DNA from: Oscillospiraceae bacterium | GTDB taxonomy: Bacteria > Bacillota > Clostridia > Oscillospirales > JAAYXM01 | Reading direction: 5' to 3' | Assembly: GCA_017421025.1 (NCBI GenBank) | Contig: JAFQME010000024.1 | Coordinates: forward strand, 68,134 to 132,133 | Length of the DNA: 64,000 bases | Part shown: positions 3,201 through 22,736 of the stretch, piece after piece | How positions within the stretch are numbered: position 1 is the first letter of the stretch | Layout of the letters: every line of letters begins with the position of its first letter | Position numbers and translations under genes: made by a program | Notes under the pieces: generated by a model | Told to the model about the DNA's origin: nothing | Database searches by the model: none | Seen by the model: only the letters and a program-made list of their open reading frames with translations

Positions 3201-3724
3201 CTGTGGAGAGCGGCTACGGTTCCTACACGAAGAAACAGGTCCCGATCGTGATGGGGAGAAGACATCTTACTACCACTGATGCGGCAAAGGTAATCGAACT
3301 GCTGAGAGAGGATAAGGTCTTTGCATCAAACGAACTGCCTGCCGCAAAGAAACTCTTTGCTGAGGAAATTGAGGATCTGGATAATTATGTCGGCACCAAG
3401 GTCATAAAAGGTCTTGTTAAAAAGAGCCATGATATGAATCCGGTTGACTTTATTCTCCGCTATGCAGAGAGCGTTGGAAATGACGAGAGAGTTACCGGTA
3501 GACTCATTGGGGCACTGGAACTTATCGCCAGAGAAATGGTGGATGCATACGGAGTCAATCGCAGTGAAGAGAGTGCCGAAAAAGCGGTCTTTGAAATCTG
3601 CAGAAAGATTTACGATTCCAGCAGCCGAACCAAGGGTAAAGAAGGCGTGTTCAAGAGCTGGAATGACAAATTCACCGAGTTGAAGATTGCAGGAACTGCA
3701 AAAAAAGAATCTGCTGAGAAATAA
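203..3724 (+). CDS. Large (1173 aa) tubulin/FtsZ-like GTPase domain protein with ~800-aa unrecognised C-terminal extension
   Basis: GGAGG lies ~8 nt upstream of the ATG. N-terminus has GLGGTGS (nt 224-244, T1-like) and SGGTGAG (nt 644-664), an exact match to the tubulin signature [SAG]-G-G-T-G-[SA]-G. Then come RHYCNAYAAIRELN and FDYAFFIDAKDE, resembling FtsZ H5/S6. Confidence 0.8.
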   Translation: MAQTLLLGLGGTGSRVVNNVVKELHKNGKSINNGEIYCAALDTNVNDNDLLEKTGTGVPIYATSKAQKIQDYFLDYKHAGIEDWCPQSPAFLQESMIDGASELRVKSRIAWMDCVESGLVRNLELMINEVLNNNANSKLRIMIVSSISGGTGAGMFIQVALWLRKFLSESQITIRGIFLLPDVFVETIKDIRDSKTTTVRHYCNAYAAIRELNTISRLMKDKSMNFEHHLKLDKVFDSDIDADFGKPVFDYAFFIDAKDEKGRRLESISEYEKMVAQLVYMQLYAPMKDSMYSEEDNAFLAFSENDNPLYGSCGTAKAVYPVDSVKTYCAIRAAQDSLTKGWKKIDGEIETLKIEREMAEKDGLFFDSEIDEQAEFVKIFEEKTSVKPEEAGRDRFFVQLARDIKNETKRKSKEDGKIAITYTDKVDDFLKELRSTKIDAEVLRNGGTQDLTMDVDTFVAADHTVEELKDIIRNDQSTMEDIVLDFDGKVEKLADAVVNSVFPLSMGDVNPKNRATLYGFLTKESKEYGQYHFVHPVAARYLLYKLSKRMEEELGKIVLADSRAVAIDPEDTRRESFDNKATREVEETPEAYLDSKKWHQAEGKFLDMFEKKYAEYINVKVGLIETYEKECLQVAVYRKLIERIKEYTRRMEQFFKKLGEVEEKFNQTLAGNIEETSRSVGKQIFVLGKQEEKEAMYKSLNFEMDTSEISKSVISSIYGCLCAEKRPNNEENKAYINLSVITSFIKETVMSFRRKIERDPENRDTIDLDIYRALCLESDMKHERAQKEHDERWGAEKTSDLSDLDLTTGQVKADTSAEQRHKAAFHDCYTAIHDMAAPFMIHTKETSEDDFGTKTARIKTFWGFAPTVASSCSDLATILGINADLQADDGYPKNELQCYRAVYGMEAKYIPKFNETTGGMYYKCYKHVIDEMVTAAAGNKGDRALVSTPHLDKSWHTMLPFVTEEMQEKTDLEFYHDFWLALAYGMVDSDKDKNLFIERTVESGYGSYTKKQVPIVMGRRHLTTTDAAKVIELLREDKVFASNELPAAKKLFAEEIEDLDNYVGTKVIKGLVKKSHDMNPVDFILRYAESVGNDERVTGRLIGALELIAREMVDAYGVNRSEESAEKAVFEICRKIYDSSSRTKGKEGVFKSWNDKFTELKIAGTAKKESAEK

Positions 3725-3736
3725 TTAATACGCATC

Positions 3737-3768
3737 GTCAGAAGGTGCTCAAAGGAGCACCTTCTGAC
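3737..3768 (+). promoter_or_regulatory. Intercistronic hairpin (perfect 14-bp stem, 4-nt loop) without U-tract
   Basis: GTCAGAAGGTGCTC-AAAG-GAGCACCTTCTGAC lies in the 69-nt gap between the first two full genes. No T-run follows. Confidence 0.55.
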
Positions 3769-3793
3769 TCACACTTTGATGGGGAGTGGCAGA

Positions 3794-5983: not shown

Positions 5984-5998
5984 AAGGAGGGAGCACAT

Positions 5999-8900
5999 AT
6001 GGGATTATTGATTTTTATCTTAAAACTGATATTGGTCCTTGTGATCACAGCGCTTCCTGCTGTTCCGTTTGTTCTGGAATACATTACTTTAAAACGAGAT
6101 CAAGAACAAAAAATCAGTTTTAAACGCCTGCGTGTTTTGCTTTACACGCTGGGGTATCTGATTGTTGCGACCATCCTTCTGTGTTTTATTGATGGGCTTA
6201 TTACCTGGTTACGTGACCTCCCCGTTTTGAAACAAGTTTTTGATTTGTTGGAAGCTTGTATTGAAGGGATTGCAAAAAAACTCTCACTGGTTACCCGCTA
6301 TGGTTACTACACCAAGGTGGTCGGTGTCATTGTGCTGAACTTCTTTATCGGCATGATTTACCGTTGGGTGAGCAAGGTCGTTCGAATTGGACTTAAGAAA
6401 AAGGATTTGACCAAGCCGAAAAAAGGAAAACACTTCACCCGTATACAGAGATTTGAACGGCGTGTGATCTGTTTTTTCCATAATGAGACATGGTTTTTTG
6501 TCGCTGAGATCCTAAAGTTTTTCAATTTGGCGCTTTCTGCGTTGTATTTGGGAGTGTTCTTGCTTTATCAGCTCCCGGGTGTGTTCGGTTTTAATTGGTT
6601 GCCGTTTGATTTTATCTATATGCTCTTTGAGTCCGGCTATCTGTTCCCGGCCGTGACTATGCTTGTGCTTTGGCAATCATATTTCTTCTTGGAAGGCATT
6701 CGCCGTGTCAGGGATGAATGCCCGGAACTTTTAGAAGAAGAGAAAGAAGAGCTTGCAACAAAAGAAGTGGATCTTGCTGCAATCGATGAAGCGGTTAAGA
6801 AGCAGTTTGCAGACTACTATGTTTGCGATTTGGATCTTTCGGATCAGGTGGCCGCAGAGATATTCTCGGCTGATCATCATCCGCTGACTCAATTTATCGG
6901 TCAGGCCGTTGAACGTGATGAGCGTAGTCCTCATCTTCCGAATGATACATACTTGACCGCAATGGATGGCCTTTTTTCGAGTGAGAAAAGTGCACTTATT
7001 AGCGGAAGCTTCTTTACTGAGTTTGCGAGATATTTCTTAAGATATCTCTCTATCATTCTCTCCCGTGGCGATAATGTGATTTTTGTTTGCAATACAGAAT
7101 CACAAATTGAATCTGTGTATGAATTCTTAAACGAGGCGCTTGCATCGATTACCAGCTTGTATTGCAAGGAATTTTCCAAAGATGCTGTGGATTTTGATGA
7201 TCCGATTTGGCGAATTGTGAAAGTCAGCGGAGAACATGATTCCATCAGTGAGGCAATGGTGGATGACAGCAATGTTCTTGTTACTTCGTTGGGATATCTT
7301 TGTTCGAATCGTTTTGAAACAGAACACAGTCGTTTTGTTCCGATGGTAGATTCTGTAGTGTTTGTAGATACGTTAACTACGATCAACTGCTATCATCGCC
7401 AAGTTGCAATTCTAAACAATCGTCTTAAGCATATCGCCCGTGAAAACTCCAATGTGGTGCGCAATGCAGAGAATAAAAGCAACTTCCAACGCTATTTGTC
7501 TCGCAAAATCCGTTATTTTTGCTTTGATGACAGCCGTACTCCGGGGTTGGATAAAGTACTCAAAAATATGCTTTCGGTGAATCTGGAGTCGTTGGACATC
7601 ATGTGTTACAGTCGCTCGACTTTGGTACGTTGTTACAACTACGAAGGAAGATTGGATGGCTCCGGCAGACAAGTCCTTCCGCAGTTCTTCCATTCTGAGG
7701 AAGAAGTCGGGGCACTGATCAATGTGGCAATTCTTTGTCTTGCAAAGGGTGCAAACAGCGTCAATATCTTTGCGGATGGTGCCATTCCGTTTGAAAACTA
7801 TGCGGAAACGATTGCGGCAAACCGTGGTCAGGTTTTGGTAAAGGCAGACGGGAATAATATCTGCATCAACCGTCATCGTTATGATGCAGATGGGTATTCG
7901 GTTGTCATTGCGATGGATTCAGGAGATAATCTGCCGGCAACGCTGCGTCGGTATATTTCCATGATGCCGGAAAAACCGACACTTGTGATAGTGTTCTCTC
8001 GTCCATACCTGTTACGTGATTTTTATCAAAGTAATTTAAAAGCGCTTTGGAGTGCAAGTCAGCTTGAGCGAATCCCTGTTGAAGAGGGAACCCGCAAAGA
8101 TCTTGCGCAACGTATTTTGGTCAAGGCAAATGCGGGAGGTATTACGACCGCAGAAGTTATGCAGCTTGCAAGCAACATCCCGCAACTGAATGGATTTGTT
8201 CAAGCCGGGGATTTGAATGCAATTTTGCGTATTGTATTGGAATGCTATGGTGTTCCGAAAGAAGAGAGAATCGATCTTTTCACCTATTTTGAATATGCTG
8301 CTTCTCATACGTTTGATGCAAATGGGAAATATGTATCCGAGGAGCGCATTTTCTTGCGTCGCAAGGGAAAACTCTTTGATTTAATCAATGGGCGTAATAT
8401 GGTGGTTCTCTCGATTGGAGATCAGGAACAGATGCTTCCTGTTCCGAAAAGCCGCTTGACACAAAATTTCATTGCAGGTCAAAACGTACTTTTCGACGGT
8501 AAGATTTACCACATTCTCAAAGTGGATACCGCATCGGGGAAACTTTACGGACGGCTTGCTGTAGGCGGTAAGAACGATGAGGTGTATGAATATCTCCAAA
8601 AGCGCGAATACCATGTAGAACTTTCCCATGGAGAAGGCGAGACAAACATTGAGAAAGTCTTCCAAACAAAGCATTTGGTACTCAACGAAAACGAAGGTTC
8701 TGTCGGACTTACCGATGCGTTTGTTTCGGTGTTCCGTGCGCCTGCCGAAGTTCTTACCTACGGCTATTTTGATGTCGACCCGCATACCATGACCCGAAGC
8801 TTCAAGGATGGACGCTATCACAGCATCTGTGATGCTAATAATGATTTGCTCTTTAAGCAGACCTACCGCCGTTACGGAACAATTTCCAACCCGAAGATTT

Positions 8901-11248
8901 CGTCTGAGGAGATTTTGTGCGACACCAATCTGATTTCTTCGACAGAAGGCCTGATGATGATGTCAGTCCGACTCGTTGGTAATTTTGGAGCAGGAAAAGA
9001 CAAAGCACTTCAGCTTTTGACTGTTATGCTCAATGAACTCCTGCGCTCCATGTTCCCTTCGGTAATTGACTCAATTGCTGTTTGTCCGGTTCTTAAGGAA
9101 GAATTCACCGATGAAGAGAGTGCCCAAGTGTTGGCGAAGTATCCGAAAGTAACCTTTGATGGTGTTGATGAAGCGGTCAGCAAAGATGAGTTTAATTTTA
9201 TCATTGTTGAGGACAGTGAAACGGATCTCGGTGTGGTTTCGGTTCTTTTACGAGCCGGCGATGATTTGCTGCGCACTTTGTTTGCTCCGATTAACGGTTA
9301 TTTAGAGTGGTATTTTTCCGCAGAACAAAAAAGTGAATATCTCTATTTTGGTATGGATCATGAGCCTGCATGTTTTGATTTCTCAATGTTGCGTGATGTT
9401 TCCCGTATTTTAGGCGATCGTAAACACGACATTCGTTTTGTTGAGTTATCGGAAATTGTGGAATATGAGGAATGCAGTTTCTGCGGAAAGCGGTATCGCA
9501 AGGGCGATTCAATCAATCGCCTGGGAGATGGTCGCTTGATGTGTAAAGAATGTGCTGAGCATTTGGTTGGTAACAACAAAAAGGTTCTCAAAGCACATTT
9601 GGAACGCGCAAAACTGTATTTGGAAAACACCTATGGAATTCGCTTGGATGAGGATTATGAATTCTGCTTTGAGTCCACTGTGAAACTGGCAAATACATTA
9701 AAGCAGAATCGTGAACTGCATCGTCAAGGTGCCGATGTTTCGCTGAAGAGTTACATTGACGAAAGCAAACGTGTGCATGTGGAATGTGATCTTCCGTCGG
9801 CAAATCTGTCTGAGCTTTTGGTGCGTGAACTCACTCATGTGTGGCAACTTTCGCATCTTAAGGGTGTGGAGAATCTTCTTTCGGGACACCTTGCATTGGT
9901 TGGCGTACAGTATCTGCGTTCCTTAAAAGAAAATGGACTTGCAGATTCACGTACTGCATACTTTGAAAGCACCGAAGCGGTTTCCGGTGTTGAATATCGT
10001 ACCTTGGTGCAGGAACTGCTGCTTCACCCTGAGTTTGGGAATAATCCGTTCCTCTATTTGCTGAAAACTGCCGGCATTTCGTCCGGAGACGAGGCAATGC
10101 CAATTCCACCGGAACTTGTTGAAAACGGATCTTACGGTGAACCGTATGTTCCGTCAGAGCCGGACCGTGCAACCGATGGAACCTTAAAGTATTTCTATCG
10201 AGAGCGGTTGACTGAGAGTCAGCGTGGAATGTATGATACAGTGCTTGAGGCACTTTGTAATCATGAGGAGAGTGTTGATCTCGCAGGAATCGAATTTGAG
10301 GATGCCAAAATCATCATTGAATCGATTGCGTATGACCATCCTGAGTTGTTCTGGATGAAGGAACATTATTCCTTAAGTGCAGACCGCTTGACCTTAAATT
10401 ATGGTTGCACTGCAGAAGAAGCACGTGTAATGGAAGCACGCATGGAACCTGTTATTTCCAAATTCCTCGATGGAATCACTCCTGAGATGAGTGCGTATGA
10501 TGTTGCTGTTATGCTCTATCGTCGTATCTTGAAGATGGTGGATTATGATACCATTGCGCTGAACAAAGAGCGGGAGCACGGCGGACCGGATCACAACAAG
10601 ATTGACATGCTTCGTGCAATTTGTGGTGTGTTTACCGACGGTAAGGCGGTTTGCGAGGGCTATGCACGTGCATTGCAGTATCTCCTGCAAAAGTGCGGAG
10701 TGGAATGCGCTGAGGCAGCGGGTATGGTGCATAAAGGAAACGGAGAAGAAGGCAGTCCGCATGCATGGAATATTGTCAAAATTGATGGAGATTATTATTA
10801 TCTCGATGTAACTTGGGACGATGATTCCAATACAGTTCAGTCTGTGAAGCAACCGAGAAATCAGGGGTATGCCTATTTCTGTATCACAACCGAGGAACTC
10901 AGTCGCTCTCGTGATACTTCGCTCTGTCCGGTTGCAATGCCGGTTTGTGATGCGGTTCGTGCAAACTATTTCGTTCATAACGGACTTGTGCTCGAGGCCT
11001 ATGATTTGAAAAAACTGAAAGAGATTGCAAAAGCTACTGCAGAAAGCGGCAATAACTTCATTACCTTTAAATGCACATCCAAAGCAGTTTACGATACAGC
11101 GATGGAAAATTTGTTCACCAAAGGTGATGATGTCTTTGCACTTGCAAAAGTTGCGGCAAAAGCAAACAAGAGTTTAAAGAGTGGACGTGTTTCCTATACG
11201 TGGGATGATCAAATGCTCGTTGTTTGCATCATTATGGAGATGAAGTGA
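5999..11248 (+). CDS. 1749-aa polytopic membrane protein: ~5 N-terminal TM helices + degenerate SF2-helicase/DUF1998-like body + Cys4 zinc ribbon + C-terminal transglutaminase-like cysteine-peptidase core
   Basis: AAGGAGG RBS. TM helices at nt ~6005-6688. CxxC-x19-CxxC at nt 9473-9553. RELTHVWQLSH at nt 9824-9856. Transglutaminase core CEGYARAL...HAWNIV...YYYLDVTWDD with Cys1552 (nt 10652), His1588 (10760) and Asp1603 (10805). Confidence 0.85.
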   Translation: MGLLIFILKLILVLVITALPAVPFVLEYITLKRDQEQKISFKRLRVLLYTLGYLIVATILLCFIDGLITWLRDLPVLKQVFDLLEACIEGIAKKLSLVTRYGYYTKVVGVIVLNFFIGMIYRWVSKVVRIGLKKKDLTKPKKGKHFTRIQRFERRVICFFHNETWFFVAEILKFFNLALSALYLGVFLLYQLPGVFGFNWLPFDFIYMLFESGYLFPAVTMLVLWQSYFFLEGIRRVRDECPELLEEEKEELATKEVDLAAIDEAVKKQFADYYVCDLDLSDQVAAEIFSADHHPLTQFIGQAVERDERSPHLPNDTYLTAMDGLFSSEKSALISGSFFTEFARYFLRYLSIILSRGDNVIFVCNTESQIESVYEFLNEALASITSLYCKEFSKDAVDFDDPIWRIVKVSGEHDSISEAMVDDSNVLVTSLGYLCSNRFETEHSRFVPMVDSVVFVDTLTTINCYHRQVAILNNRLKHIARENSNVVRNAENKSNFQRYLSRKIRYFCFDDSRTPGLDKVLKNMLSVNLESLDIMCYSRSTLVRCYNYEGRLDGSGRQVLPQFFHSEEEVGALINVAILCLAKGANSVNIFADGAIPFENYAETIAANRGQVLVKADGNNICINRHRYDADGYSVVIAMDSGDNLPATLRRYISMMPEKPTLVIVFSRPYLLRDFYQSNLKALWSASQLERIPVEEGTRKDLAQRILVKANAGGITTAEVMQLASNIPQLNGFVQAGDLNAILRIVLECYGVPKEERIDLFTYFEYAASHTFDANGKYVSEERIFLRRKGKLFDLINGRNMVVLSIGDQEQMLPVPKSRLTQNFIAGQNVLFDGKIYHILKVDTASGKLYGRLAVGGKNDEVYEYLQKREYHVELSHGEGETNIEKVFQTKHLVLNENEGSVGLTDAFVSVFRAPAEVLTYGYFDVDPHTMTRSFKDGRYHSICDANNDLLFKQTYRRYGTISNPKISSEEILCDTNLISSTEGLMMMSVRLVGNFGAGKDKALQLLTVMLNELLRSMFPSVIDSIAVCPVLKEEFTDEESAQVLAKYPKVTFDGVDEAVSKDEFNFIIVEDSETDLGVVSVLLRAGDDLLRTLFAPINGYLEWYFSAEQKSEYLYFGMDHEPACFDFSMLRDVSRILGDRKHDIRFVELSEIVEYEECSFCGKRYRKGDSINRLGDGRLMCKECAEHLVGNNKKVLKAHLERAKLYLENTYGIRLDEDYEFCFESTVKLANTLKQNRELHRQGADVSLKSYIDESKRVHVECDLPSANLSELLVRELTHVWQLSHLKGVENLLSGHLALVGVQYLRSLKENGLADSRTAYFESTEAVSGVEYRTLVQELLLHPEFGNNPFLYLLKTAGISSGDEAMPIPPELVENGSYGEPYVPSEPDRATDGTLKYFYRERLTESQRGMYDTVLEALCNHEESVDLAGIEFEDAKIIIESIAYDHPELFWMKEHYSLSADRLTLNYGCTAEEARVMEARMEPVISKFLDGITPEMSAYDVAVMLYRRILKMVDYDTIALNKEREHGGPDHNKIDMLRAICGVFTDGKAVCEGYARALQYLLQKCGVECAEAAGMVHKGNGEEGSPHAWNIVKIDGDYYYLDVTWDDDSNTVQSVKQPRNQGYAYFCITTEELSRSRDTSLCPVAMPVCDAVRANYFVHNGLVLEAYDLKKLKEIAKATAESGNNFITFKCTSKAVYDTAMENLFTKGDDVFALAKVAAKANKSLKSGRVSYTWDDQMLVVCIIMEMK

Positions 11249-11642: not shown

Positions 11643-12389
11643 ATGAGTATTTGGGATGGAAGACTCAAAGATCCGAAAGATTATCTGGAGCTCAAGTGCA
11701 AGACGTATAATTCCGCACCCGGGAAGCTCACGGGATATGACTGCCCGATTTGCAAAAACCGTGGCGTGATTGCTCAGCCGGGAGAACGGGATGTGGTGTT
11801 TCGTTGGTGCAGCTGTCGGGAAAAGCGATTGATGCTGAAGAATCTTGAAAAGAGCGGAATCACACGGCTGAATACGTTTGAGGAATTTCTTTGCCCGGAG
11901 AAATGGCAATCAAAAGTCAAGGGGCGGGCAAAAGCGTTTGCCGAGCGGGATTGGGGTTGGTTTTACATGAGTGGTCAGCCCGGCTGCGGCAAGACCCTGC
12001 TTTGCACCGGGATTGTCAACCGTTTCCTGGAGCGAGGAAAGAGCGTGCGGTACTTCTTATGGCGTGAGGATGGAACACGACTCAAAGCCTTGGCGGGGGA
12101 TATCGCTTACCGTGAGGCGATTGAGCCGTATAAGACCTGCGAGGTGCTGTATATTGACGATTTGTTTAAGGGGGCGGTGACGCAGGGGGACTTAAACCTT
12201 GCCTTTGAACTCTTAAACCACCGTTACCTGGCGGGGAGTATCACCTTGATTTCAAGCGAAAAGAGTGTGTCGGAGTTGGTGGCACTCGATGAAGCGATTG
12301 GGAGTCGGGTGTATGAAAAAACACGGGAAAACCGATTCCATATCCCAAATTCAAAACACAAGAACTGGAGGTTGAACGAATGGAACTGA
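11643..12389 (+). CDS. DnaC/IstB-like AAA+ ATPase (PBSX XkdC-like replication protein)
   Basis: Walker A GQPGCGKT and Walker B VLYIDDL. N-terminal CPIC...CSC zinc motif. GAGGAG RBS. Confidence 0.75.
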   Translation: MSIWDGRLKDPKDYLELKCKTYNSAPGKLTGYDCPICKNRGVIAQPGERDVVFRWCSCREKRLMLKNLEKSGITRLNTFEEFLCPEKWQSKVKGRAKAFAERDWGWFYMSGQPGCGKTLLCTGIVNRFLERGKSVRYFLWREDGTRLKALAGDIAYREAIEPYKTCEVLYIDDLFKGAVTQGDLNLAFELLNHRYLAGSITLISSEKSVSELVALDEAIGSRVYEKTRENRFHIPNSKHKNWRLNEWN

Positions 12390-12673
12390 ACGCAAAGAAA
12401 TACGATCTCATGCGCTATCGGATGCTGAAAGCACGTGCAAGAGGTGCACTGGATGCAGGAAACACAACCCTTGCCCACGAACTCGCTTCGTGCGCCGAGG
12501 TGTTTCGCTTAGAACTCATTGACCGTATCTCCCACATCGAGGACGAGCGGGTACGCACCGTGCTCAGCCTGCGCTATTTGCATGGCTTGGACTGGGAAAC
12601 CATAGCCGAACAAATGTTCTTTAGTGTGCGTTGGGTGATGAAGCTCCACAGAAAGGGGATCGAGGTGCTATGA
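12380..12673 (+). CDS. Sigma-70 region-4-type HTH protein (Xpf/DUF1492-like late-gene regulator)
   Basis: 97 aa. C-terminal LSLRYLHGLDWETIAEQMFFSVRWVMKLHRKGIEVL resembles a sigma region 4 HTH. Its position between the XkdC-like gene and terS matches xpf in PBSX. Confidence 0.5.
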   Translation: MELNAKKYDLMRYRMLKARARGALDAGNTTLAHELASCAEVFRLELIDRISHIEDERVRTVLSLRYLHGLDWETIAEQMFFSVRWVMKLHRKGIEVL

Positions 12674-12981
12674 CCCCAAGGCAAAAGAAATTCTGTCATG
12701 AGTATCTGCTGTGTGAGGATGCGAGCGAGGCGGCGCACCGTGCCGGCTATCAGAATCCCGAACAGGCGGGAGAACGGTTGATGGGTGAGCGTGAGGTGCA
12801 GGAGTATCTGGAGGAGATTGCGGTGGCAGATCTCTTTGAGGTGCGTGCATTTCTCACACGGGCACTCCGAGGCGGCGGCAGCATGGCGGAGCGCATCAAG
12901 GCGGCGGATATGCTCTTAAAATGCGGCATTTCCCAAAAGACCGAGCCCGTGGTGATTTTCGGGGAGGGGGATTTGCAGTAG
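12670..12981 (+). CDS. terS: Terminase small subunit
   Basis: MTPRQKKFCHEYLLCEDASEAAHRAGYQNPEQAG is typical of a Terminase_2 N-terminus. ATGA start/stop overlap with the upstream gene (start 12670 preferred over 12631). Confidence 0.8.
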   Translation: MTPRQKKFCHEYLLCEDASEAAHRAGYQNPEQAGERLMGEREVQEYLEEIAVADLFEVRAFLTRALRGGGSMAERIKAADMLLKCGISQKTEPVVIFGEGDLQ

Positions 12982-13041
12982 CAAACCGGAGTATGATGCA
13001 ATCCGGTGGGAAACGCTCGATGCACAAAGGAGGAAAAACCC

Positions 13042-13382
13042 ATGAACGAGAAACAATACACGAAATACACGGTGGATTTTCGGAATGTCAAGCACTTTTT
13101 GGAGGTGCATTTCGTGATTCGGGAGGGGCTGGATTTTCCCGATTATTACGGATGGAACCGGGATGCGTTTTGGGACTGCATCACCGAGCCGTTTGGGGAG
13201 TCGGTCCTTTGGGGATTGAAGTGCTGGAACAATTCGATGATGATGCGTATATGCTGTTATCAACTCTCAAAGAATGGAAAAAATATGAGTTGCAATTGGG
13301 AAGAGAAAACCGAATCGAGGTCGTCCGAGGAGATCGGTGCATTGAAATCGATGATTATCCGATCGAGACGTTATGTCCGTAG
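13042..13382 (+). pseudogene. Barstar-family (barnase inhibitor) gene disrupted by a frameshift
   Basis: The N-terminal half (MNEKQYTKYTVDFRNVKHFLEVHFVIREGLDFPDYYGWNRDAFWDCITEPFGES) is in the frame of ORF 13006. The C-terminal half (PLGIEVLEQFDDDAYMLLSTLKEWKKY...IEIDDYPIE) is in the frame of ORF 12921. The switch is near 13195-13215. Both halves align to the intact copies at 35884 and 36501. Confidence 0.7.
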
Positions 13383-13455
13383 GATGAACGAACTGGAGAA
13401 TTCATAAGCGAACAAACGTTTTTCGAGGGCGGATCATGAGGCGTGCGTCAAGGGG

Positions 13456-14529
13456 ATGTTTGAGAAGATTGCAAAGACCATCCGTGAGGATCTCAAAAAC
13501 GGGGAATGGCACAACGATTTCCTCAAAGATGCCGAGGCAGATCGCTTGCGTGAAGCGGTGCAGCACCTTGAAAAATGCGGGGTTTCGTGCTATGATTTAA
13601 GAGATCTGATCGGAAAACTTGATTGGTATATCGATGCGAATGAAAACCGTGTTCGTAAGCTGCAGAAATCGCTCAATGCATTGCGGATTTCCCCATCGCT
13701 TTTGGAAGATGGAATTTTGGGTGCAAAAACCATTTCGGCGTGGGGGGATTTTTACAAAGAATTCCAAAATGCAAACTGCCCGAAACTACAGTGGAAAACG
13801 GCTCCGTTGCGTGCGGGAACCACTGATGTTTCGGAGCTTGAGAAACTCAGTCAATCAATGTCCGGGTATGGGGTGTTGGAGAAAGGGCTAAAGAATATGG
13901 AGTCTGTAGCGACAAAAATAAAAGCTGGAGAATGGCAAAAGAATTTTCGAGAATTGCACGAATTGTTTCCGAGTCTTCGCTCTGCGAGTTACCTGTCAGA
14001 TAATTTTTTTATTTCTCAAAGAGCAAAGCGCTTTTTAGATGATATGGGATCTTCTGTTCGTGTCGTTGAAAAAGCAGGGAACGTGTTTGCCGTTGCAGGA
14101 GTTGTGGCAGATGCGCTGATTGCAGGGGCTGAAGTTTATGATGATGTAAAATATGATGGAAAACTAGGACGAAAAGGATATGGTGCAGTTTTAGGAACGG
14201 CGACAAGTTATGCAATCGGATCGATGATTAGCAATTGGGGTGGTGGTCTGACGATCGGTGCAAAGTTAGGCGCAGTTTTTGGACCGGCGACAAGTTATGC
14301 AATCGGATCGATGATTAGCAATTGGGGTGGTGGTCTGACGATCGGTGCAAAGTTAGGCGCAGTTTTTGGACCGACAGGTGCTGTGATCGGTGCGGTTGTT
14401 GTTCCAATCATATTGACAATTGTTGGGGAAGAAACGGCCGGATCACTTGTGCGATGGGTTGTGGAGGTTACCGATCTCAAAAAGGAACTGTACGGACCTA
14501 CTATGGCAAAACATTTTAGTTTGGAGTGA
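13456..14529 (+). CDS. 357-aa protein with PG_binding_1-like motif and C-terminal glycine-zipper membrane region (candidate membrane-active toxin/lysis factor)
   Basis: RVRKLQKSLNALRISPSLLEDGILGAKTISAW (nt ~13648-13755) fits the peptidoglycan-binding-domain pattern. The C-terminus has a GxxxG/A-rich hydrophobic region with a duplicated 29-aa unit. There is no signal peptide. Confidence 0.6.
   Translation: MFEKIAKTIREDLKNGEWHNDFLKDAEADRLREAVQHLEKCGVSCYDLRDLIGKLDWYIDANENRVRKLQKSLNALRISPSLLEDGILGAKTISAWGDFYKEFQNANCPKLQWKTAPLRAGTTDVSELEKLSQSMSGYGVLEKGLKNMESVATKIKAGEWQKNFRELHELFPSLRSASYLSDNFFISQRAKRFLDDMGSSVRVVEKAGNVFAVAGVVADALIAGAEVYDDVKYDGKLGRKGYGAVLGTATSYAIGSMISNWGGGLTIGAKLGAVFGPATSYAIGSMISNWGGGLTIGAKLGAVFGPTGAVIGAVVVPIILTIVGEETAGSLVRWVVEVTDLKKELYGPTMAKHFSLE
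14200..14373 (+). repeat. Perfect 87-bp tandem duplication (2 copies) inside the glycine-zipper region
   Basis: 14200-14286 equals 14287-14373 by eye. Each copy encodes ATSYAIGSMISNWGGGLTIGAKLGAVFGP. Confidence 0.85.
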
Positions 14530-14535
14530 GGAATT

Positions 14536-15261
14536 GTGTATCCGAAGTGGCTTGCGAAGTTGATCGTTGCGACAAATGGGTTTGCCGAAGCGACCGGAAT
14601 GAAACACGCATATGTGGTGCGTGAGAAGAATGTATACCGTGTGTTCGGGATTGCGGACCTACACCGGGAGAAATTACTCTCGCTTGCGATGCGGATGCTT
14701 TGCGAGTTTTCTGCGCCGTTTGGTGTCATTACCTCGTTTTCGCGTGACCCTGAGCCGGTGTTGACCCCGGAAGAAAAACTGCGTTTCCGCCTTGAGCGGG
14801 AAGGTGCGGTTTTGGTGGAAGAAGATCGTTTTTCCGTGGCGAGTTTTGGGGCTCGCCGTGACATTTTAGAGGAAATAGGACACGATGTAACAGCATGGGG
14901 CAAGAACCGTCGGATTTGGGACGGGATGTACATGGAACTCTTCCCTCGGGAATGTTTCCCGAACGATCCGCTTTCCCGGTGGAAAGCAGGCAATTGGGAG
15001 CCGGAACTGACGCTTGCAACCGAGTTGTATCATATGCCGCCCGGGCTCCCCGGACAAAGCCGCAGAGAGCCGTTGTTTTGTGCGTTGTCGGTTTTTTGTG
15101 TGTCTGTCAAATTGCCGCACGGAAGCTCACCGCGCGTGGCACAAGGCTTAGAACACTGGCTTGCGACCGCACTTTCGGAATTGGATTTTTCTGCGGAGTG
15201 GTATGTGACCGGGAAATTGCCCGACTGCGAAGAGCGGATGTTTCAGCGGGAATTTCTGTAA
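14536..15261 (+). CDS. Paralog 1 of a three-member hypothetical family (candidate immunity-like protein)
   Basis: GTG start inside the conserved junction AGTTTGGAGTGAGGAATTGTGTAT (14518-14541). Shares the FGIADLH, WDGMYMELF and AEWYVTG blocks with the 15975 and 16753 genes. Confidence 0.7.
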   Translation: MYPKWLAKLIVATNGFAEATGMKHAYVVREKNVYRVFGIADLHREKLLSLAMRMLCEFSAPFGVITSFSRDPEPVLTPEEKLRFRLEREGAVLVEEDRFSVASFGARRDILEEIGHDVTAWGKNRRIWDGMYMELFPRECFPNDPLSRWKAGNWEPELTLATELYHMPPGLPGQSRREPLFCALSVFCVSVKLPHGSSPRVAQGLEHWLATALSELDFSAEWYVTGKLPDCEERMFQREFL

Positions 15262-15303
15262 CCGAACGGCGGAATGGGTTTTTGACAGTGAGGAGGAAAC
15301 AGG

Positions 15304-15957
15304 ATGAAAATCAAAGAGTTTTTTGAAAATTTGCTCATAAAATTTTTTGATCGGGTGTTTGATTGCCTTGGCATTCATGGGTGTGAGGAGTGGGAGGATA
15401 CCTACTTGATGAATGAGTGCATACGATATCCCTATTATGTGGATGGGGTTCCGCCCGAATATGCTCTGCTTACCTGTTATCCCGATCCGGTTTGGGGCGG
15501 CGATTGGGACTTCCCTTTGGTCGTGTGGGAGGTGCTGGAAACCCTCCTTGCAGGAAAGTGCGCGGTTGTGCGGCTTTCTTCCTGGGCGCCCAAGGGAGTA
15601 GAGTTTGTGAAAGACGAGCTTTCTCACATAGAATCCGTGTATCTCACAGGTGAGGAAATCTATGTGGTGTCAAACGGGATGAATCCTGCACTTGGGGACG
15701 TGATTGCTGCCAGAGCAGGTGAATTTGACCTGATTTGGGAAGTGTTTGGGGGATGCAGTTTCGTTGGAGGAAATTTTGAGGATGCGGAAGAGGCATATAC
15801 GATCGGTGCGAAAGTCTTTTTGGACTTGAGTTTTGGAGAGCATTGTGGTGCACAGTTTGTGTTTTCTGATCCTGCGGATCGGGAAACGGCAAGGAGCGTG
15901 TTGGCTGAAGTATGCCGCAAATACGGAAAGAAGCTGATCGAATCGAATGAGAGATGA
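15304..15957 (+). CDS. Hypothetical protein (217 aa), intercalated in the paralog array
   Basis: GAGGAGGA RBS. No motif recognised. Its stop abuts the second conserved junction. Confidence 0.65.
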   Translation: MKIKEFFENLLIKFFDRVFDCLGIHGCEEWEDTYLMNECIRYPYYVDGVPPEYALLTCYPDPVWGGDWDFPLVVWEVLETLLAGKCAVVRLSSWAPKGVEFVKDELSHIESVYLTGEEIYVVSNGMNPALGDVIAARAGEFDLIWEVFGGCSFVGGNFEDAEEAYTIGAKVFLDLSFGEHCGAQFVFSDPADRETARSVLAEVCRKYGKKLIESNER

Positions 15958-15974
15958 GTTTGGAGTGAGGAATT

Positions 15975-16727
15975 GTGTATACAGAGAGGGATGCAAAAAT
16001 TTCCCTTGCGCTTTGTATGAAGAGAAAAATGTTACGTCGGATTTATGTTTGGAGGACGGAACGGAAACTCTCAGAGCATACACGGGTGACCTATCAGATT
16101 TATGGTGTGGCAGAACTTCATGCCGAGAAACTCCACGCACTTGCCATGAAGTTTTTGCGGGAGTTTGCGGCACCGTTTGATACGGTGATGACCGTCCTGA
16201 AACAAACACGATTTGATTCAATGCCGAATGAGCAACTGCAGGCACGATTGAAACTTGAGAGCGCTGTCTTTGCGGAGAAAAATAAGTTTTCTGTTTTTTC
16301 CCACGGCGTGCGCAATGACATTCTTGATACCATCGGTCGCAATGTGAAAACATGGGGCGACTACGAACCTGTTTGGGACGGGATGCACTTGGAATTGTTT
16401 TCAAACGAGGTTCTGCCGGGCGATCCGACCGAGGCATTGGAGCGTTGGAACAAGAATCGTCCCAAACCTGTGTTTGAAATCATGACTGAGTTTCGCAGGT
16501 TTCCGAGAGACGGTTATCCTTATCAGTATTACACATCAAGCATTACAAAGTTTTGCATCAATGCGGGGTTCTGCGAGGGAAGTACGGATGCGGATGAGCA
16601 GGCATTTGAGAAGTGGCTTGCGAGTGTGTTTACCGAACTGGACATCAATGCGGAATGGTATGTGACCGGGAGCAAACCCGAAAGTGCCAGTGCGTTCTTC
16701 CCTTGGGATGATGCCGAAGCGTGGTGA
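15975..16727 (+). CDS. Paralog 2 of the three-member hypothetical family
   Basis: GTG start in junction 15957-15980. Has the conserved blocks YGVAELHAEKLHALAMKFLREFAAPFD, VWDGMHLELF and AEWYVTG. Confidence 0.7.
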   Translation: MYTERDAKISLALCMKRKMLRRIYVWRTERKLSEHTRVTYQIYGVAELHAEKLHALAMKFLREFAAPFDTVMTVLKQTRFDSMPNEQLQARLKLESAVFAEKNKFSVFSHGVRNDILDTIGRNVKTWGDYEPVWDGMHLELFSNEVLPGDPTEALERWNKNRPKPVFEIMTEFRRFPRDGYPYQYYTSSITKFCINAGFCEGSTDADEQAFEKWLASVFTELDINAEWYVTGSKPESASAFFPWDDAEAW

Positions 16728-16752
16728 AAGATGGAGTTTGGAGTGAGGAATT

Positions 16753-17490
16753 GTGTATCCGAAGTGGCTTACGAAGTTGGATCTTTTGTGGTATGGGCAG
16801 AACTATTTGATGCAACCGATTTTTGTTTGGAGAAGTAAAAAACGGCTTTCGCCGCATACAAAGGCGACTTATCGGGTTTTCGGAGTGGCAGAACTTCATG
16901 TGGAGGAGTTTCATGCGCTTTCCATGAAGTTTTTGCGGGAGTTTGCGACATCGTTTGATGTGGTGATGACAGTTCGTCACAAGTCGCTTCTTGATACTGT
17001 AAAGATGAATCCGTTTTTGAAACGACCGAAACCCGAATGTGCCATGATCGTGGATGAAAAAAACATTGCGGTATTGACTCGTTCTGCGCACCAAGAGGTT
17101 TTGAATCGGCTTGGACGAGATGTAAAAGCATGGAAGAAGAATCAATGGGTGTGGGACGGAATGAAGGTGGAATTTTTTTCGCCTGGAGACTTGCCGGATG
17201 ACCCGAATGAGGCGCTTGCATGGTGGAATGAGCATCGACCGCAACCTGCATTTGAACTGAAAATCGAGTTTCGGGAGTTTTCGTCGCATGGCAAACACTA
17301 TATCCGAAATGCTACCACTTTTTGTATCTCTGCCGCACTTCCGCAAGGAAGTACGGATGCGGATGAGCAGGCATTTGAGAAGTGGCTTGCGAGTGTGTTT
17401 GCCGAACTGGACTTGGATGCGGAATGGTATGTGACCGGAACAGAGCCTGATTGTACGGAGCTGTTCTTTGGTTGGGGGAAAATTGGCTGA
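16753..17490 (+). CDS. Paralog 3 of the three-member hypothetical family
   Basis: GTG start in junction 16735-16758. A 54-nt block (17347-17400) is identical to 16578-16631 of paralog 2. Confidence 0.7.
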   Translation: MYPKWLTKLDLLWYGQNYLMQPIFVWRSKKRLSPHTKATYRVFGVAELHVEEFHALSMKFLREFATSFDVVMTVRHKSLLDTVKMNPFLKRPKPECAMIVDEKNIAVLTRSAHQEVLNRLGRDVKAWKKNQWVWDGMKVEFFSPGDLPDDPNEALAWWNEHRPQPAFELKIEFREFSSHGKHYIRNATTFCISAALPQGSTDADEQAFEKWLASVFAELDLDAEWYVTGTEPDCTELFFGWGKIG

Positions 17491-17528
17491 TTGAGATGAG
17501 GTTGGAGTGAGGGAAGTGTGCAAGTGCG

Positions 17529-17557
17529 TTGACTTTTTTCGGCATTTTTGGTATACT
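17529..17557 (+). promoter_or_regulatory. Sigma-70-type promoter (TTGACT-17-TATACT) for the lipoprotein/YitT cassette
   Basis: TTGACT 17529-17534, 17-nt spacer, TATACT 17552-17557. Confidence 0.55.
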
Positions 17558-17592
17558 GGATGACGCAAAAAAAGAGAAGGAAGTGCTTTGGA

Positions 17593-17898
17593 ATGAAACG
17601 GTTACTGGCTTGTGTGTTGCTCCTGGTGTTTCTTGTTTCCGGCTGTGCTTCGGTGGAGTCGAAGCTGGTTGGAAAATGGGAGCGTGAGGGAGACAAGTTG
17701 ATTTTAAATGAGGACTATACCGGAGATCTTTCCGGGACTTCGATTACTTGGATGTACACCAACGAGGAATTGCAGATGATTTACGACGACGGCATGAACG
17801 TTGCGTTTGATGTGGAATTTGAGGGTCGGGATCGGCTGATTCTCACATCGGCGGGAGAGTATGGCATGACAGCGGAATTTTCCCGTGTGGAGGACTAA
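17593..17898 (+). CDS. Small lipoprotein (lipocalin-like/DUF-type)
   Basis: MKRLLACVLLLVFLVSGC is a lipobox signal. Start 17593 is preferred over 17548. Confidence 0.7.
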   Translation: MKRLLACVLLLVFLVSGCASVESKLVGKWEREGDKLILNEDYTGDLSGTSITWMYTNEELQMIYDDGMNVAFDVEFEGRDRLILTSAGEYGMTAEFSRVED

Positions 17899-18735
17899 AT
17901 GAAACAGACGAAAACCATTTTGATGACCTTGTTTGGCACCATGATGACAGGGTTTGCCATCGGTGCGTTTCTCACTCCGAATAAAGTGGTTGGTGGCGGT
18001 GCTTCCGGTATTTCCACCATTTTGTTCCACACCTTTGGCATTTCTCCGGGTATCAGTTTCTTTGTGATCAACCTGGTCTTTTTGCTTTTGGGGCTGCGTG
18101 TTTTGGGCAAGGAATTCATTGTCAAAACCCTGATCGGAATCACGCTGCTGTCGGCCTTTACCGAGGTGTTCAACTTAATCCCGATCTACACCGAGAATTT
18201 ATTTCTTGCGGTGATTTTCGGGGGCGGGCTTTACGGGCTTGGCATCGGCATGAGTTTTGCAGCCGGCGCATCCACCGGCGGCACCGACATCATTGGCCGC
18301 ATCATTCAGACCAAGTTCTCGCATGTCCCGATCGGGAAGATGCTGCTGTTTGTGGATGGGGTGATTATTTTGGTGTCCCTCATCGTGTTCCGTAATCTGG
18401 AACTCACGTTGTATGGCATCATCACTCTGCTGATCTCGAGCTTCTCGATTGATTTCATCATCGGGAAATTCAACGTGTCCCGCCTGGTGTTTGTCATCAC
18501 CGATTACGGGACCGAGATTGCGCATCGTTTGGTGTCCACCTCGCCTCGTGGGGTCACGTTGATTCCGGTTCACGGGGTGTATTCGGACAGCGAAAAACAG
18601 ATGCTGTTTTGTGCACTCAAGGAGAGTGAAGTTGCCGCATTCCAAAAGAAGATTTTGGAGCTGGACCCGGGCGCATTCATCGTGTTTGCCGAAAGCCAGC
18701 GCATCAAAGGCAACGGGTTTTATCTGTATCAATAG
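17899..18735 (+). CDS. YitT-family membrane protein (DUF161 + DUF2179)
   Basis: N-terminus FGTMMTGFAIGAFLTPNKVVGGGASGISTIL and multi-TM topology are typical of the YitT family. The C-terminal soluble domain ends ...RIKGNGFY. Confidence 0.8.
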   Translation: MKQTKTILMTLFGTMMTGFAIGAFLTPNKVVGGGASGISTILFHTFGISPGISFFVINLVFLLLGLRVLGKEFIVKTLIGITLLSAFTEVFNLIPIYTENLFLAVIFGGGLYGLGIGMSFAAGASTGGTDIIGRIIQTKFSHVPIGKMLLFVDGVIILVSLIVFRNLELTLYGIITLLISSFSIDFIIGKFNVSRLVFVITDYGTEIAHRLVSTSPRGVTLIPVHGVYSDSEKQMLFCALKESEVAAFQKKILELDPGAFIVFAESQRIKGNGFYLYQ

Positions 18736-20853: not shown

Positions 20854-20887
20854 CACCGGAATCCATCAGAGATTCCGGTGTTTTTTT
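20854..20887. terminator. Bidirectional terminator between convergent cargo genes
   Basis: CACCGGAATC-7 nt-GATTCCGGTG, flanked by an A-rich stretch and T7. Confidence 0.75.
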
Positions 20888-22736
20888 AGTATGTAATCAG
20901 GATTAGTTCATCTTTGGGATGGAGAGTCACAGGTGCTGCAGTGTCCGTTTCAGAAGATAAGAAAGAAATCTCTTGACAGTCTGAGCCTTCCGGCTTAATG
21001 CCAACACACATTTTTTTCTTTCCGGAAGCCAGAAAGAAAGATTGGATCAATTCGGACTTAGAAGAGAATGTCATTTCTTGAGCATTGAATTCCAACAAAT
21101 CTTCGGCACGGATAATATCAAAATCGATACTACCGGCATCACCTATTCCGTTTGTGAGTATGATATCACGGTAGAAACGGCGGGAACCCGGGTGGGTGAG
21201 CAGTTGCGCCATAAAGAGAGAGATGATTTTACTTGACACAATAACCGAGGCAACCCCTAGGTTTTGCATGGAAATTAAGTTTTTCGGGTTTACAATTTCA
21301 GCATAGATTGGAATGTGTGGATCCAGTTTTCCGCTGATTTTCAATGAGATCAGTGCAATGAAAACATCAGCGTCCTGGTCTGCTTGGTTTCCTCTCTCCG
21401 ATGACAGAAGCAGAATCTTTTTATTACCGGGAATCGCACGGATATGCTCTGCGAAAATGTCGATATTTTCAGAGTAGGAATGTACTTCAACCGTGATGCT
21501 TTTACCGAATAAACGGTTATAGGCATCGAGCTCCTCGGAAACAAAGCGGACTCGGTCGGAGTCAGAAAGAATGATGAGTGTGAAATTTTCTCGGATGATC
21601 CTTTCTCTATAGGGAATGGGTTTTGCAAATGAATGGGGTGTTTTTCGCTCTTCAATGGATTCGAAATCGTCTGCAAGGAAATACAGTTGATCTGCTGCGG
21701 TTTCGCCGTTTTCGTCGATTTCGCAGTCGTCATCATAATTGATAATCGGAATACAGTTATGGTAACGATAGAGCGCTTGCTCCAAATCCATGGTGGGAAG
21801 GCTATAGAATTCGCATCCTTTATAGGAAAGGATATGGTGGAACAATTGGGAATAAAGAGGGTTGATGACTGCTCTGCCAAGAATATGACCGATGACTGAG
21901 TTGTGCGCAAAGACCGAAACACGATTTAACAAGGACGGATCTGTTTTGTGGAGAAAATGTTCGATTCGTTTTTCTGTGCTTTCATTTTCTACTTCAACTG
22001 CAATATTAGCACGGGATCCCATATTGCGAATTGCCATCAATACCTTAAAAGAGGATAAATCGGCATCTGAGATGAGAATTCCGTCATCTTCTGTGACGCT
22101 CTCATCGGAAAGAAGAACACCGATATACTTTGCATTATCGATGGAAACATCTTTCAAATGTTTGGATGAATTTGGAGTGCCATATTTGATAAACAATTCC
22201 ATATTCCGGATACTACGTTGGTTCTCGGTGAAGATGTTTTCAATGGAAGTCATAACTTCGTGGCGGTTCTTCTCGCAGAGAATGACAATTGTCTTTTTCT
22301 CCTCCTGAAATGACAGGTCATAAATAATGTTTGGACCAATGGCAGACCAGTTTAAAAAAACATAATGATCTCGTAATTTCAGTTTTCCAACATTTTCAAC
22401 ACGTTTGTTGATCGTAGATTGCAGAATGTCTGTGGTGAAACCGATGAGCGCACCCGAGAAGATTACCATTTGCACCACAGTGAGCACAATTTTGATGACA
22501 AAACAGGTGACATCTTCTTGTTGATTCACAAAGTCATAGATGCCGTCTGAACACATGGTATAGGTGAATAGATAGGAAAGCTCCTCGAAAAACGGATTTT
22601 TAGAGATGATTGAGAGTAATGCAGTGAAAAACAGGATGACAACGAGATTGATTGCAACCAATAGAAGGGCGATTGCTGCACGAGGATGGGTATACCAAAA
22701 TAGATAAAGCCCACCTGATTTTCTTTCTTTTTTCAT
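20886..22736 (-). CDS. Membrane protein with 2-TM pore-like N-terminus and tandem RCK/TrkA-like domains (CASTOR/POLLUX-type putative ion channel)
   Basis: 616 aa. TM segments AAIALLLVAINLVVILFFTALL and CFVIKIVLTVVQMVIFSGALIGF flank LFTYTMCSDGIYDF. RCK-like starts at HYVFLNWSAIGPNIIYDL and FTLIILSDSDRV. It lies antisense to the phage late genes. Confidence 0.6.
   Translation of the reverse strand: MKKERKSGGLYLFWYTHPRAAIALLLVAINLVVILFFTALLSIISKNPFFEELSYLFTYTMCSDGIYDFVNQQEDVTCFVIKIVLTVVQMVIFSGALIGFTTDILQSTINKRVENVGKLKLRDHYVFLNWSAIGPNIIYDLSFQEEKKTIVILCEKNRHEVMTSIENIFTENQRSIRNMELFIKYGTPNSSKHLKDVSIDNAKYIGVLLSDESVTEDDGILISDADLSSFKVLMAIRNMGSRANIAVEVENESTEKRIEHFLHKTDPSLLNRVSVFAHNSVIGHILGRAVINPLYSQLFHHILSYKGCEFYSLPTMDLEQALYRYHNCIPIINYDDDCEIDENGETAADQLYFLADDFESIEERKTPHSFAKPIPYRERIIRENFTLIILSDSDRVRFVSEELDAYNRLFGKSITVEVHSYSENIDIFAEHIRAIPGNKKILLLSSERGNQADQDADVFIALISLKISGKLDPHIPIYAEIVNPKNLISMQNLGVASVIVSSKIISLFMAQLLTHPGSRRFYRDIILTNGIGDAGSIDFDIIRAEDLLEFNAQEMTFSSKSELIQSFFLASGKKKMCVGIKPEGSDCQEISFLSSETDTAAPVTLHPKDELILITY

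Follow-up and report, generated by a model that had tools for sequence, protein, structure and literature searches.

A tandem gene array is described here from a 64,000-nt stretch of DNA of an Oscillospiraceae bacterium from the gut, uncultured and represented by a metagenome-assembled genome (MAG; NCBI GenBank assembly GCA_017421025.1, contig JAFQME010000024.1, positions 68,134 to 132,133), the whole of which is termed the window. The array runs in the order T (a glycine-zipper membrane protein), a, X, b and c, where a, b and c are diverged paralogs that each start within one and the same 24-nt junction. This junction has been shown to be the translation initiation region of the paralog family, and the locus has been shown to be an accessory operon in the packaging module of a prophage. 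Comparison with relatives at the sequence level indicates that the identical junctions are the outcome of concerted evolution confined to approximately 45 nt at the 5' end, together with at least one tract inside b and c. A previous sequence-only reading of the window had noticed the junctions and likened the locus to polymorphic toxin/immunity or cassette-switching systems; its sequence observation has been confirmed, and its interpretation is partly supported. The features of the array are as follows.

13456-14529, + strand: T, 357 aa, glycine-zipper membrane protein, putative membrane-damaging effector
14182-14355, + strand: two tandem 87-nt units in T, 97% identical, doubling a 29-aa glycine-zipper segment
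14518-14541, + strand: junction 1, exact 24-mer match
14536-15261, + strand: paralog a, 241 aa, A-type, predicted to be soluble with an alpha+beta fold
15304-15957, + strand: X, 217 aa, between a and b
15957-15980, + strand: junction 2, exact 24-mer match
15975-16727, + strand: paralog b, 250 aa, B/C-type
16578-16631, + strand: 54-nt tract in b, identical to 17347-17400 and encoding GSTDADEQAFEKWLASVF
16735-16758, + strand: junction 3, exact 24-mer match
16753-17490, + strand: paralog c, 245 aa, B/C-type
17347-17400, + strand: partner 54-nt tract in c
17499-17520, + strand: degenerate fourth junction AGGTTGGAGTGAGGGAAGTGTG, with its core at 17502-17512

The junction and its evolution

On the + strand, the junction AGTTTGGAGTGAGGAATTGTGTAT lies exactly at 14518, 15957 and 16735, one copy ahead of each paralog; these are the only exact matches, no further match with up to three mismatches is present in the 64 kb, and 100 shuffles yielded none. 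Its 11-nt core TTGGAGTGAGG occurs four times in the window, solely at the four unit boundaries. Each junction is constructed of an extended Shine-Dalgarno (SD)-like element GGAGTGAGG, a short spacer, the GTG start codon and the first codons of the conserved N-terminal peptide MYPKWLAK. The extended Shine-Dalgarno sequence of Firmicutes is GGAGGTGA, to which GGAGTGAGG is close, and the sequence-only reading was right in assigning both the ribosome-binding site (RBS) and the GTG start to the junction, as it was in its coordinates and sequence claims for the paralogs, X and the shared blocks.

Two of the junctions also overlap the end of the preceding gene, as had been recognised. The open reading frame (ORF) of T (13456-14529) terminates with AGT TTG GAG TGA within junction 1, which contains the last three codons and the TGA of T, the SD-like element and, 6 nt past this stop, the GTG of a; the arrangement is suited to translational coupling. 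In-frame readthrough of the TGA into a was discarded, since the frames agree in the window and not in L008, one of the related contigs introduced below, and the feature is not conserved. At junction 2, the stop codon of X overlaps the first base. The tetranucleotide GATG immediately upstream is common to junctions 2, 3 and 4. Behind the core of the fourth junction only GTG CAA GTG CGT TGA follows, a four-codon ORF and no gene, in agreement with the earlier description; this copy is closest to junction 2, the upstream GAGATG included, and is best interpreted as the edge of the array or as the scar left by a deletion.

No inverted repeat was found at the junctions, their folding energy was no greater than in shuffled sequences (z between -0.35 and +0.93), and no Rfam match was obtained at E values up to 1 in 12500-18500, which together identify the junction as an unstructured translation initiation region. 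An RNA element or an attC-like site was ruled out on the same three grounds, and integron-type cassettes were dismissed because the junctions hold no palindromic attC site and have no adjacent integrase or recombinase, their neighbours being terS-like, Barstar, lipoprotein, YitT and terL genes. The cassette switching envisaged earlier is not supported as a programmed mechanism, the conserved sequence being explained as RBS, start and first codons.

The contigs bearing homologs represent three lineages of one prophage type, between which the YitT-family proteins are 87-90% and the terminase large subunits (terL) 87-88% identical. T stands upstream of the paralogs in all three lineages with context, and the gene orders are given below together with the fusion found in one of them.

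Window-type lineage: T-a-X-b-c
L001 lineage: T (562 aa)-a'-c'
L008/L009/L010 lineage: T-(b fused in frame to X, 420 aa)-repeat-rich spacer-a-frameshifted c
L008 10001-11263, L009 413-1675 and L010 225-1487: the 420-aa in-frame b-X fusion P0009, on three contigs from three samples

Within a comparison window of -21 to +30 around the start codon, the junctions of a and c in the window are 88% identical, as against 53% for a and its L008 ortholog; likewise, the b-X fusion and the c pseudogene of L008 share 94%, as against 39% for b of the window and this fusion. Codon 6 is CTT in a and c of the window, CTG in both L001 genes and ATG in all three L008 genes, and the start codon is GTG in all window copies and ATG in every copy elsewhere. 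In all three lineages, the junction variants are genome-specific and common to non-orthologous paralogs, whereas the gene bodies group by type. The search of relatives that had been proposed for the junction gave a divided answer: the core and the first codons are conserved, but the exact 24-mer is absent from L001 even when up to three mismatches are allowed. The length of 24 nt also holds among the three window copies taken together, but a and c share a longer 5' segment of 45 nt with one mismatch.

In the neighbour-joining tree, an A clade (W_a, L8_a, P0004 and L1_a) is recovered with 98.5% bootstrap support and a B/C clade with 100%, inside which the c subclade (W_c, L1_c and the L8 pseudogene) reaches 79.5%. 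Because the gene bodies group as A versus B/C across lineages, a, b and c are old types that predate the split of the three lineages, instead of a fast-turnover repertoire; the orthologs of c are L001 4108-4827 and the pseudogene of L008/L009, and in each lineage one A-type gene is retained together with one or more of the B/C-type. Nei-Gojobori dN/dS values between lineages are 0.155 for a (versus the L008 ortholog), 0.32 for c and 0.20 for b, within an overall range of 0.15-0.40, which amounts to ordinary purifying selection.

A second trace of exchange lies inside the genes. The block common to b and c is identical at 54 of 54 nt and codon-aligned, and none of 2000 codon-column permutations produced a run as long (permuted maximum 32), which upholds the earlier attribution to gene conversion; a 23-nt identical run between L1_a and L1_c was likewise matched in none of 2000 permutations. 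Junctions that cluster by genome, bodies that cluster by type and the 54-nt tract point jointly to local gene conversion, and recombination on conserved blocks of tandem diversified paralogs, as the sequence-only reading had supposed, is borne out by the permutation test and the junction clustering. The 54-nt tract, the rearranged gene orders, the fusion, the pseudogene and the leftover junction are all products of this recombination.

As a separate observation, the spacers between the array genes of the L008/L009 lineage are filled with short repeats that have the core GCGGCGAAGCCGC (L008 7371, 8678, 11271, 11571 and 12998; L009 1683, 1983, 3290 and 3472); in L009, one of these repeats stands in place of the 3' end of the c-type pseudogene. 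The elements resemble small mobile repeats, and neither the window nor L001 contains any.

The paralogs, X and T

At the protein level, a is 36-37% identical to b and c, and b and c are 47% identical to each other; outside the junction, DNA identity among the three amounts to 49-63%. The shared blocks reported earlier are present, with the amendment that the first reads [FY]G[IV]A[DE]LH instead of FG only, since b has YG. The N-terminal octapeptide MYPKWLAK has degenerated to MYTERDAK in b and is kept even in L1_a, the most diverged member of the family (23-30% identical overall). The NCBI call of b (P0002, 213 aa) starts 37 codons past the junction GTG; the residues left out in this way are conserved with other family members (IYVW..KL..HT), as are residues 20-45 of b, and the 250-aa form beginning at the junction is on this comparison the more likely one.

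The paralog proteins are near-neutral in charge and lack membrane segments; no 19-residue window reaches membrane hydropathy in b or c, and a just reaches the threshold of 1.4 (1.46). Their invariant residues are mainly aromatic or hydrophobic (e.g., WDG and EWYVTG), with no obvious catalytic set. The AF2 models of a (pLDDT 81, pTM 0.80) and c (pLDDT 75, pTM 0.79) are confident and display one common alpha+beta topology, in which a beta-hairpin, a long helix and a strand are predicted at either end around a mixed middle. Foldseek returned no match at E <= 0.001 for the a and c models against the PDB or for the c model against BFVD, all TM-scores being at most 0.34; the recurring matches to Hsp33, START/PYL, RNA polymerase alpha and Med18/20 were too weak to use. 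An internal duplication was sought by hhalign of thirds of a paralog, which found nothing.

The family is extremely rare. A paralog profile search recovered seven proteins among 5.8 billion clusters, and a full HMMER scan of 1.84 billion representative proteins gave eight matches, one of them a spurious repeat protein, so that seven are real. No significant model for a, b, c or X exists in Pfam, PHROGs, NCBIfam or PADLOC, and hmmscan of the seven family members at E values up to 10 produced just DUF4880 and DUF5577, which are noise. Relatives of the paralogs or T were found neither in IMG/VR, the JGI metagenomes nor the INPHARED phages, and the GTDB genomes contributed only the contig already known as L001; the rarity of T rests on pattern scans, as a single-sequence search was swamped by glycine-rich words and missed known homologs.

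X is acidic (38 D+E versus 18 K+R) and contains 8 Cys. It had been taken for an unrelated gene; however, from residue 28 to residue 217 it shares 38% identity (E 2e-38) with the C-terminal half of the b-X fusion P0009, and this in-frame fusion to a b-type paralog in a relative links X functionally to the b-type. X occurs where b occurs and is absent from L001, which has no b. X is therefore taken to be a functional associate of the b-type instead of an unrelated insertion. That X is itself a diverged member of the paralog family was considered and rejected (hhalign E 0.16).

T is composed of a conserved N-terminal portion of about 100 aa, a poorly conserved middle, approximately three hydrophobic zipper segments and a charged tail; the hydropathy profile places segments at residues 206-228 and 296-332, and the glycine-zipper motifs number six. 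The N-terminus carries a peptidoglycan-binding-like motif with sub-threshold Pfam matches to PG_binding_3/1, and the Gly-zipper_Omp match is weak. Identity to the L008 and L001 homologs falls from 66-75% over the N-terminus (residues 1-100) to 23-32% in the middle and 13-35% in the zipper, and on these sequences T follows the conserved-N, variable-C divergence typical of polymorphic toxins. As a whole, T is 44-50% identical between lineages as against 87-88% for structural genes, which indicates that it evolves fast; like T, the paralogs of the B/C-type are evolving far more rapidly than the genes on the flanks. No toxin, secretion/trafficking or holin family matched T in Pfam, PHROGs, NCBIfam or PDB sequence searches, the LXG domain is absent from both T and the 562-aa L001 homolog, and PDB profile and sequence searches with the paralogs, T, its N- and C-terminal parts and X were empty.

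Concerning the 87-nt repeat, a single-unit form of T (P0008, 328 aa) is encoded on L002, and L003 has a 100-N gap at the repeat; the samples may differ in the number of units, or assembly may have collapsed the repeat. Two further observations concern the best-conserved stretch of T (RHLEKCGVSCYDL, window 13568-13596), which doubles as a promoter close to consensus (TTGAAA-17-TATGAT, with TG). L001 carries, downstream of its array, a copy of just this conserved stretch, which measures about 85 nt and matches nt 807-882 of the T of L001 at 94-97% identity. A 186-nt insert splits this copy into two parts (5095-5149 and 5336-5365), and a DUF805/zinc-ribbon gene follows immediately. The copy is either what is left of a second T or an internal promoter that has been reused.

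The prophage and the neighbouring genes

The host element is an integrated contractile-tailed prophage that extends from before position 203 to about 36 kb of the window. Its packaging and structural genes comprise terS-like, terL, SPP1-type portal, capsid, sheath, tube and baseplate J genes, with an Amidase_2 endolysin (34517-35485) at the end of the tail module; TubZ-like tubulin, a 1749-aa transglutaminase-like protein, a DnaC/IstB-like ATPase and a sigma-70 region 4 protein are encoded as well. Beyond it, host genes follow, including those for an SLH/CAP protein, polysaccharide synthesis, pyruvate kinase, FeoB and PheST. The array occupies an accessory stretch between terS and terL, in the company of Barstar-domain, lipoprotein and YitT-family genes. 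The independent metagenome assemblies L002 and L003, which come from other samples, are 100% identical over the array, which is accordingly not an assembly artefact.

13006-13407, + strand: Barstar-domain ORF (Pfam Barstar, 2e-10), directly upstream of T
17529-17557, + strand: promoter-like site TTGACT-17-TATACT with a TG extension, just past the fourth junction

The genes T-a-X-b-c are closely spaced. Since no convincing terminator was found between 13456 and 17490 and a promoter-like site follows the fourth junction, they most simply form one transcription unit, after which the next unit (lipoprotein, YitT and terminase large subunit) is opened by the site at 17529-17557; L009 carries a similar TTGACA...TATACT at the equivalent place.

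The Barstar ORF, for which other gene callers give the alternative start 13042 (121 aa), is found in L002-L004, is missing from the same position in L001 and L008, and has no barnase-like partner gene nearby; it is restricted to the window-type lineage and is regarded as context outside the array proper. In its place, L001 has a 240-aa N-terminal extension on T, and L008 a non-coding, repeat-bearing spacer. On the other side, a lipocalin-like lipoprotein gene and a YitT-family gene (DUF2179 C-terminus) separate the array from terL in all three lineages (window 17594-18735; L001 6092-7234; L009 3601-4746), an unusual conserved cargo within a packaging module. Between terL and portal, the window has a gene for a 616-aa membrane protein (20886-22736, - strand) that contains an RCK-like domain, and the two other lineages have one for a TIR-domain protein of about 1,090 aa (L001 9488-12778; L009 6894-10169); the slot looks like an accessory or defence hotspot.

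Upstream, positions 203-11248 encode a 1173-aa protein with the TubZ-like tubulin domain (Tubulin_2, 1e-45), a 735-aa protein without hits and the 1749-aa protein, whose transglutaminase-like core lies near the C-terminus. The 'small terminase' (12380-12981) is just 103-116 aa long, matches only the N-terminal DNA-binding part of Terminase_2 (positions 1-52 of 141), and overlaps the gene of the sigma-70 region 4 protein, which has 97 aa; the pair may be regulators instead of packaging proteins.

Possible function and comparison with known systems

In our analysis, the layout most resembles that of a toxin with soluble neutralisers or chaperones of the ExiAB/TipE kind, in an array that evolves as the esaG arrays do, a reading to which slightly less than an even chance is given. 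T would act as a membrane-inserting, depolarising or pore-forming effector, and a, b, c and X as cytoplasmic binding partners that shield its hydrophobic zipper, so that T stays in solution and does no harm to the cell that makes it before it is released or activated. The two types would both be required, with one protein of the A-type and one or more of the B/C-type, possibly as a hetero-oligomer, and identical initiation regions might tend to equalise the translation of the partners. The order of T followed by paralogs, kept in three lineages, is counted in favour of this proposal, as are the glycine-zipper motifs, hydrophobic segments and divergence pattern of T, the lack of membrane segments and of an obvious catalytic set in the paralogs, their purifying selection and common predicted topology, the retention of both types in every genome, and the b-X fusion.

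Several observations weigh on the other side. T matches no toxin or secretion/trafficking family, and its glycine-zipper Pfam match is insignificant (E 0.31); the paralogs match neither DUF5085 nor any immunity family and have no Foldseek match in the PDB or BFVD. The A-type is far better conserved between lineages than T (79% versus 50%), contrary to what would be expected if a cognate immunity protein co-evolved tightly with a variable toxin domain. The gene next to T varies, a being first in two of the three lineages compared and b-X in one. A more elaborate form of the toxin-neutraliser proposal, in which a phage-delivered, secretion-system-independent glycine-zipper toxin would be released at lysis and directed to the walls of neighbouring cells by its peptidoglycan-binding-like N-terminus, while new-fold neutralisers (A-type, B/C-type and X) would protect the lysogen and the initiation regions would be homogenised for fixed proportions, is decidedly unlikely; if true, the toxin and the immunity proteins would both represent new families, and the locus would exemplify concerted evolution selected at the ribosome-binding site and not at the coding body.

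Among the other explanations, an orphan-immunity repertoire, as the sequence-only reading had it, would have each paralog neutralise another T-like variant of competing phages or strains, with the array resized by junction recombination. Several diverged copies behind a conserved-N, variable-C protein, a pseudogenised copy, copy-number differences between lineages, conserved blocks and conversion tracts like those of esaG arrays and the Barstar-domain gene adjoining T would suit such a repertoire, but it is considered rather unlikely: the a, b and c types are orthologous across the phage lineages and predate their split, each is kept under purifying selection, no lineage has more than three copies, and, in the available data, T variants are too rare for an arms race, with no relatives in IMG/VR, the JGI metagenomes or INPHARED. 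Moreover, the known soluble cytoplasmic proteins protect only against a cytoplasmic toxin, and an incoming toxin calls for membrane proteins (PMC12744356). An abortive-infection or defence module, in which T would disrupt the membrane and the soluble paralogs would serve as sensors or regulators that release or activate T on superinfection, appears unlikely. It would agree with the position of the operon in an accessory hotspot, whose neighbouring slot in the relatives is occupied by the TIR-domain protein (with ThsB_TIR matches), and with the rapid evolution of T and the B/C-type paralogs relative to their flanks. A membrane effector paired with soluble partners is, in addition, a common layout of defence systems. 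PADLOC nevertheless gave no significant match, its best being that of b alone to AbiEii (E 0.025), no domain typical of a sensor, such as a nucleotide-binding or nuclease domain, was detected, and the peptidoglycan-binding-like N-terminus of T would be left unexplained.

Two further explanations take the phage particle or its release as their starting point. T might be a virion-associated membrane or ejection protein with the paralogs as assembly chaperones, or MYPKWLAK a capsid-targeting tag, like that of the T4 internal-protein locus, by which a, b and c are packaged and injected; the location between terS and terL, near the portal and capsid genes, the weak PHROG matches of T to tape-measure and tail-lysin families (E ~1e-3), its peptidoglycan-binding-like motif and the conservation of the octapeptide even in L1_a would fit. 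This is held to be very unlikely, given that the PHROG matches are marginal and fall on the glycine-rich hydrophobic region, that T is 44-50% identical where structural proteins reach 87-88%, that the paralogs are homologous over their full length, unlike the T4 internal proteins, and that b has lost the N-terminal motif. Lysis timing, with T as an unusual large holin or pinholin and the paralogs as antiholin-like regulators, would profit from the fact that T is phage-encoded and has approximately three hydrophobic segments with glycine zippers; yet T measures 357 aa with a 205-aa soluble N-terminal domain, the Amidase_2 endolysin is 20 kb from T, at the end of the tail module, where lysis cassettes normally sit, and no holin family was matched, which makes this role extremely improbable.

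If the toxin-neutraliser function is true, soluble neutralisation of zipper toxins would not be limited to DUF5085 proteins in the T7SS (type VII secretion system) loci of staphylococci and streptococci; the same principle would operate with another fold in a prophage of rumen Clostridia, adding a new toxin and a new neutraliser family. Function aside, the locus provides a clean, small case of concerted evolution limited to the translation initiation region, in which a 5' segment of about 45 nt is homogenised in each genome and the gene bodies retain their ancient orthology, and it could serve for studies of how long and how selective conversion tracts are in phage genomes. The rarity of the family (7 real members in 1.84 billion proteins) limits its practical importance unless a function is shown.

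Of the known systems, the nearest in layout are glycine-zipper toxins with soluble partners. In Staphylococcus aureus, the soluble paralogs ExiA and ExiB form a heterodimer that neutralises EsxX in the cytoplasm, ExiB gripping the EsxX zipper in a hydrophobic groove (PMC12744356), and in Streptococcus gallolyticus, TelE is blocked by the soluble TipE, a second nearby DUF5085 paralog giving no protection (PMC10434224). Soluble DUF5085 proteins neutralise cytoplasmic glycine-zipper toxins through zipper binding (PMC12744356, PMC10434224). Their compact alpha/beta fold has two 4-stranded antiparallel sheets, two overlying helices and a hydrophobic groove. In the window array, proteins predicted to be soluble likewise follow directly downstream of one whose C-terminus carries a glycine zipper, as with ExiA/ExiB and TipE, and there are at least two diverged paralogs per locus, as with ExiA/ExiB; the predicted models may belong to the same alpha+beta fold class, with long helices over beta-sheets, although none of the seven family members has a Pfam DUF5085 match.

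In the mode of evolution, the array is comparable to the esaG (DUF600) and tipC immunity arrays, whose homology blocks include the 3' end and the intergenic region and recombine with one another, and which contain interspersed unrelated genes and pseudogenes (PMC9484751). Both consist of strings of non-identical paralogs behind a toxin-like gene, with blocks at gene ends and in the intergenic region (here the junction, the AEWYVTG region and the 54-nt tract), statistically supported recombination, interspersed genes or pseudogenes and varying copy number and order. Unlike them, the window array holds 2-3 copies instead of up to 12, and its types are old and orthologous, not rapidly reshuffled; it is phage-borne and belongs to another protein family, with no DUF600 or TipC match and no LXG/T7SS linkage, and its putative toxin is not a nuclease or a lipid II phosphatase.

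The likeness to polymorphic toxin/immunity loci that had been proposed is upheld in the array behind T and in the conserved-N, variable-C divergence of T, and not in any known toxin, trafficking or immunity family. Such systems in general were reportedly treated by Zhang, Aravind and colleagues in 2012. Small partner genes directly downstream, an adjacent orphan Barstar-type gene and, in L001, a putative toxin-gene fragment downstream of the array add to the resemblance; on the other hand, no recognisable trafficking or toxin domain is present (PDB sequence searches were empty), the C-termini of T are diverged yet alignable and not swapped, and there are no full orphan toxin-tip cassettes.

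The internal protein (IP) locus of T4-type phages consists of tandem genes with capsid-targeting sequences, in which a common ribosome-binding site and the first ~10 codons are the substrates of recombination. The window array shares with it the tandem phage genes with a common ribosome-binding site and first codons, and differs in its true full-length paralogs, in which no prohead-protease cleavage motif was identified. Taken together, the protein families are new to the searched databases, and the kind of system is already known.

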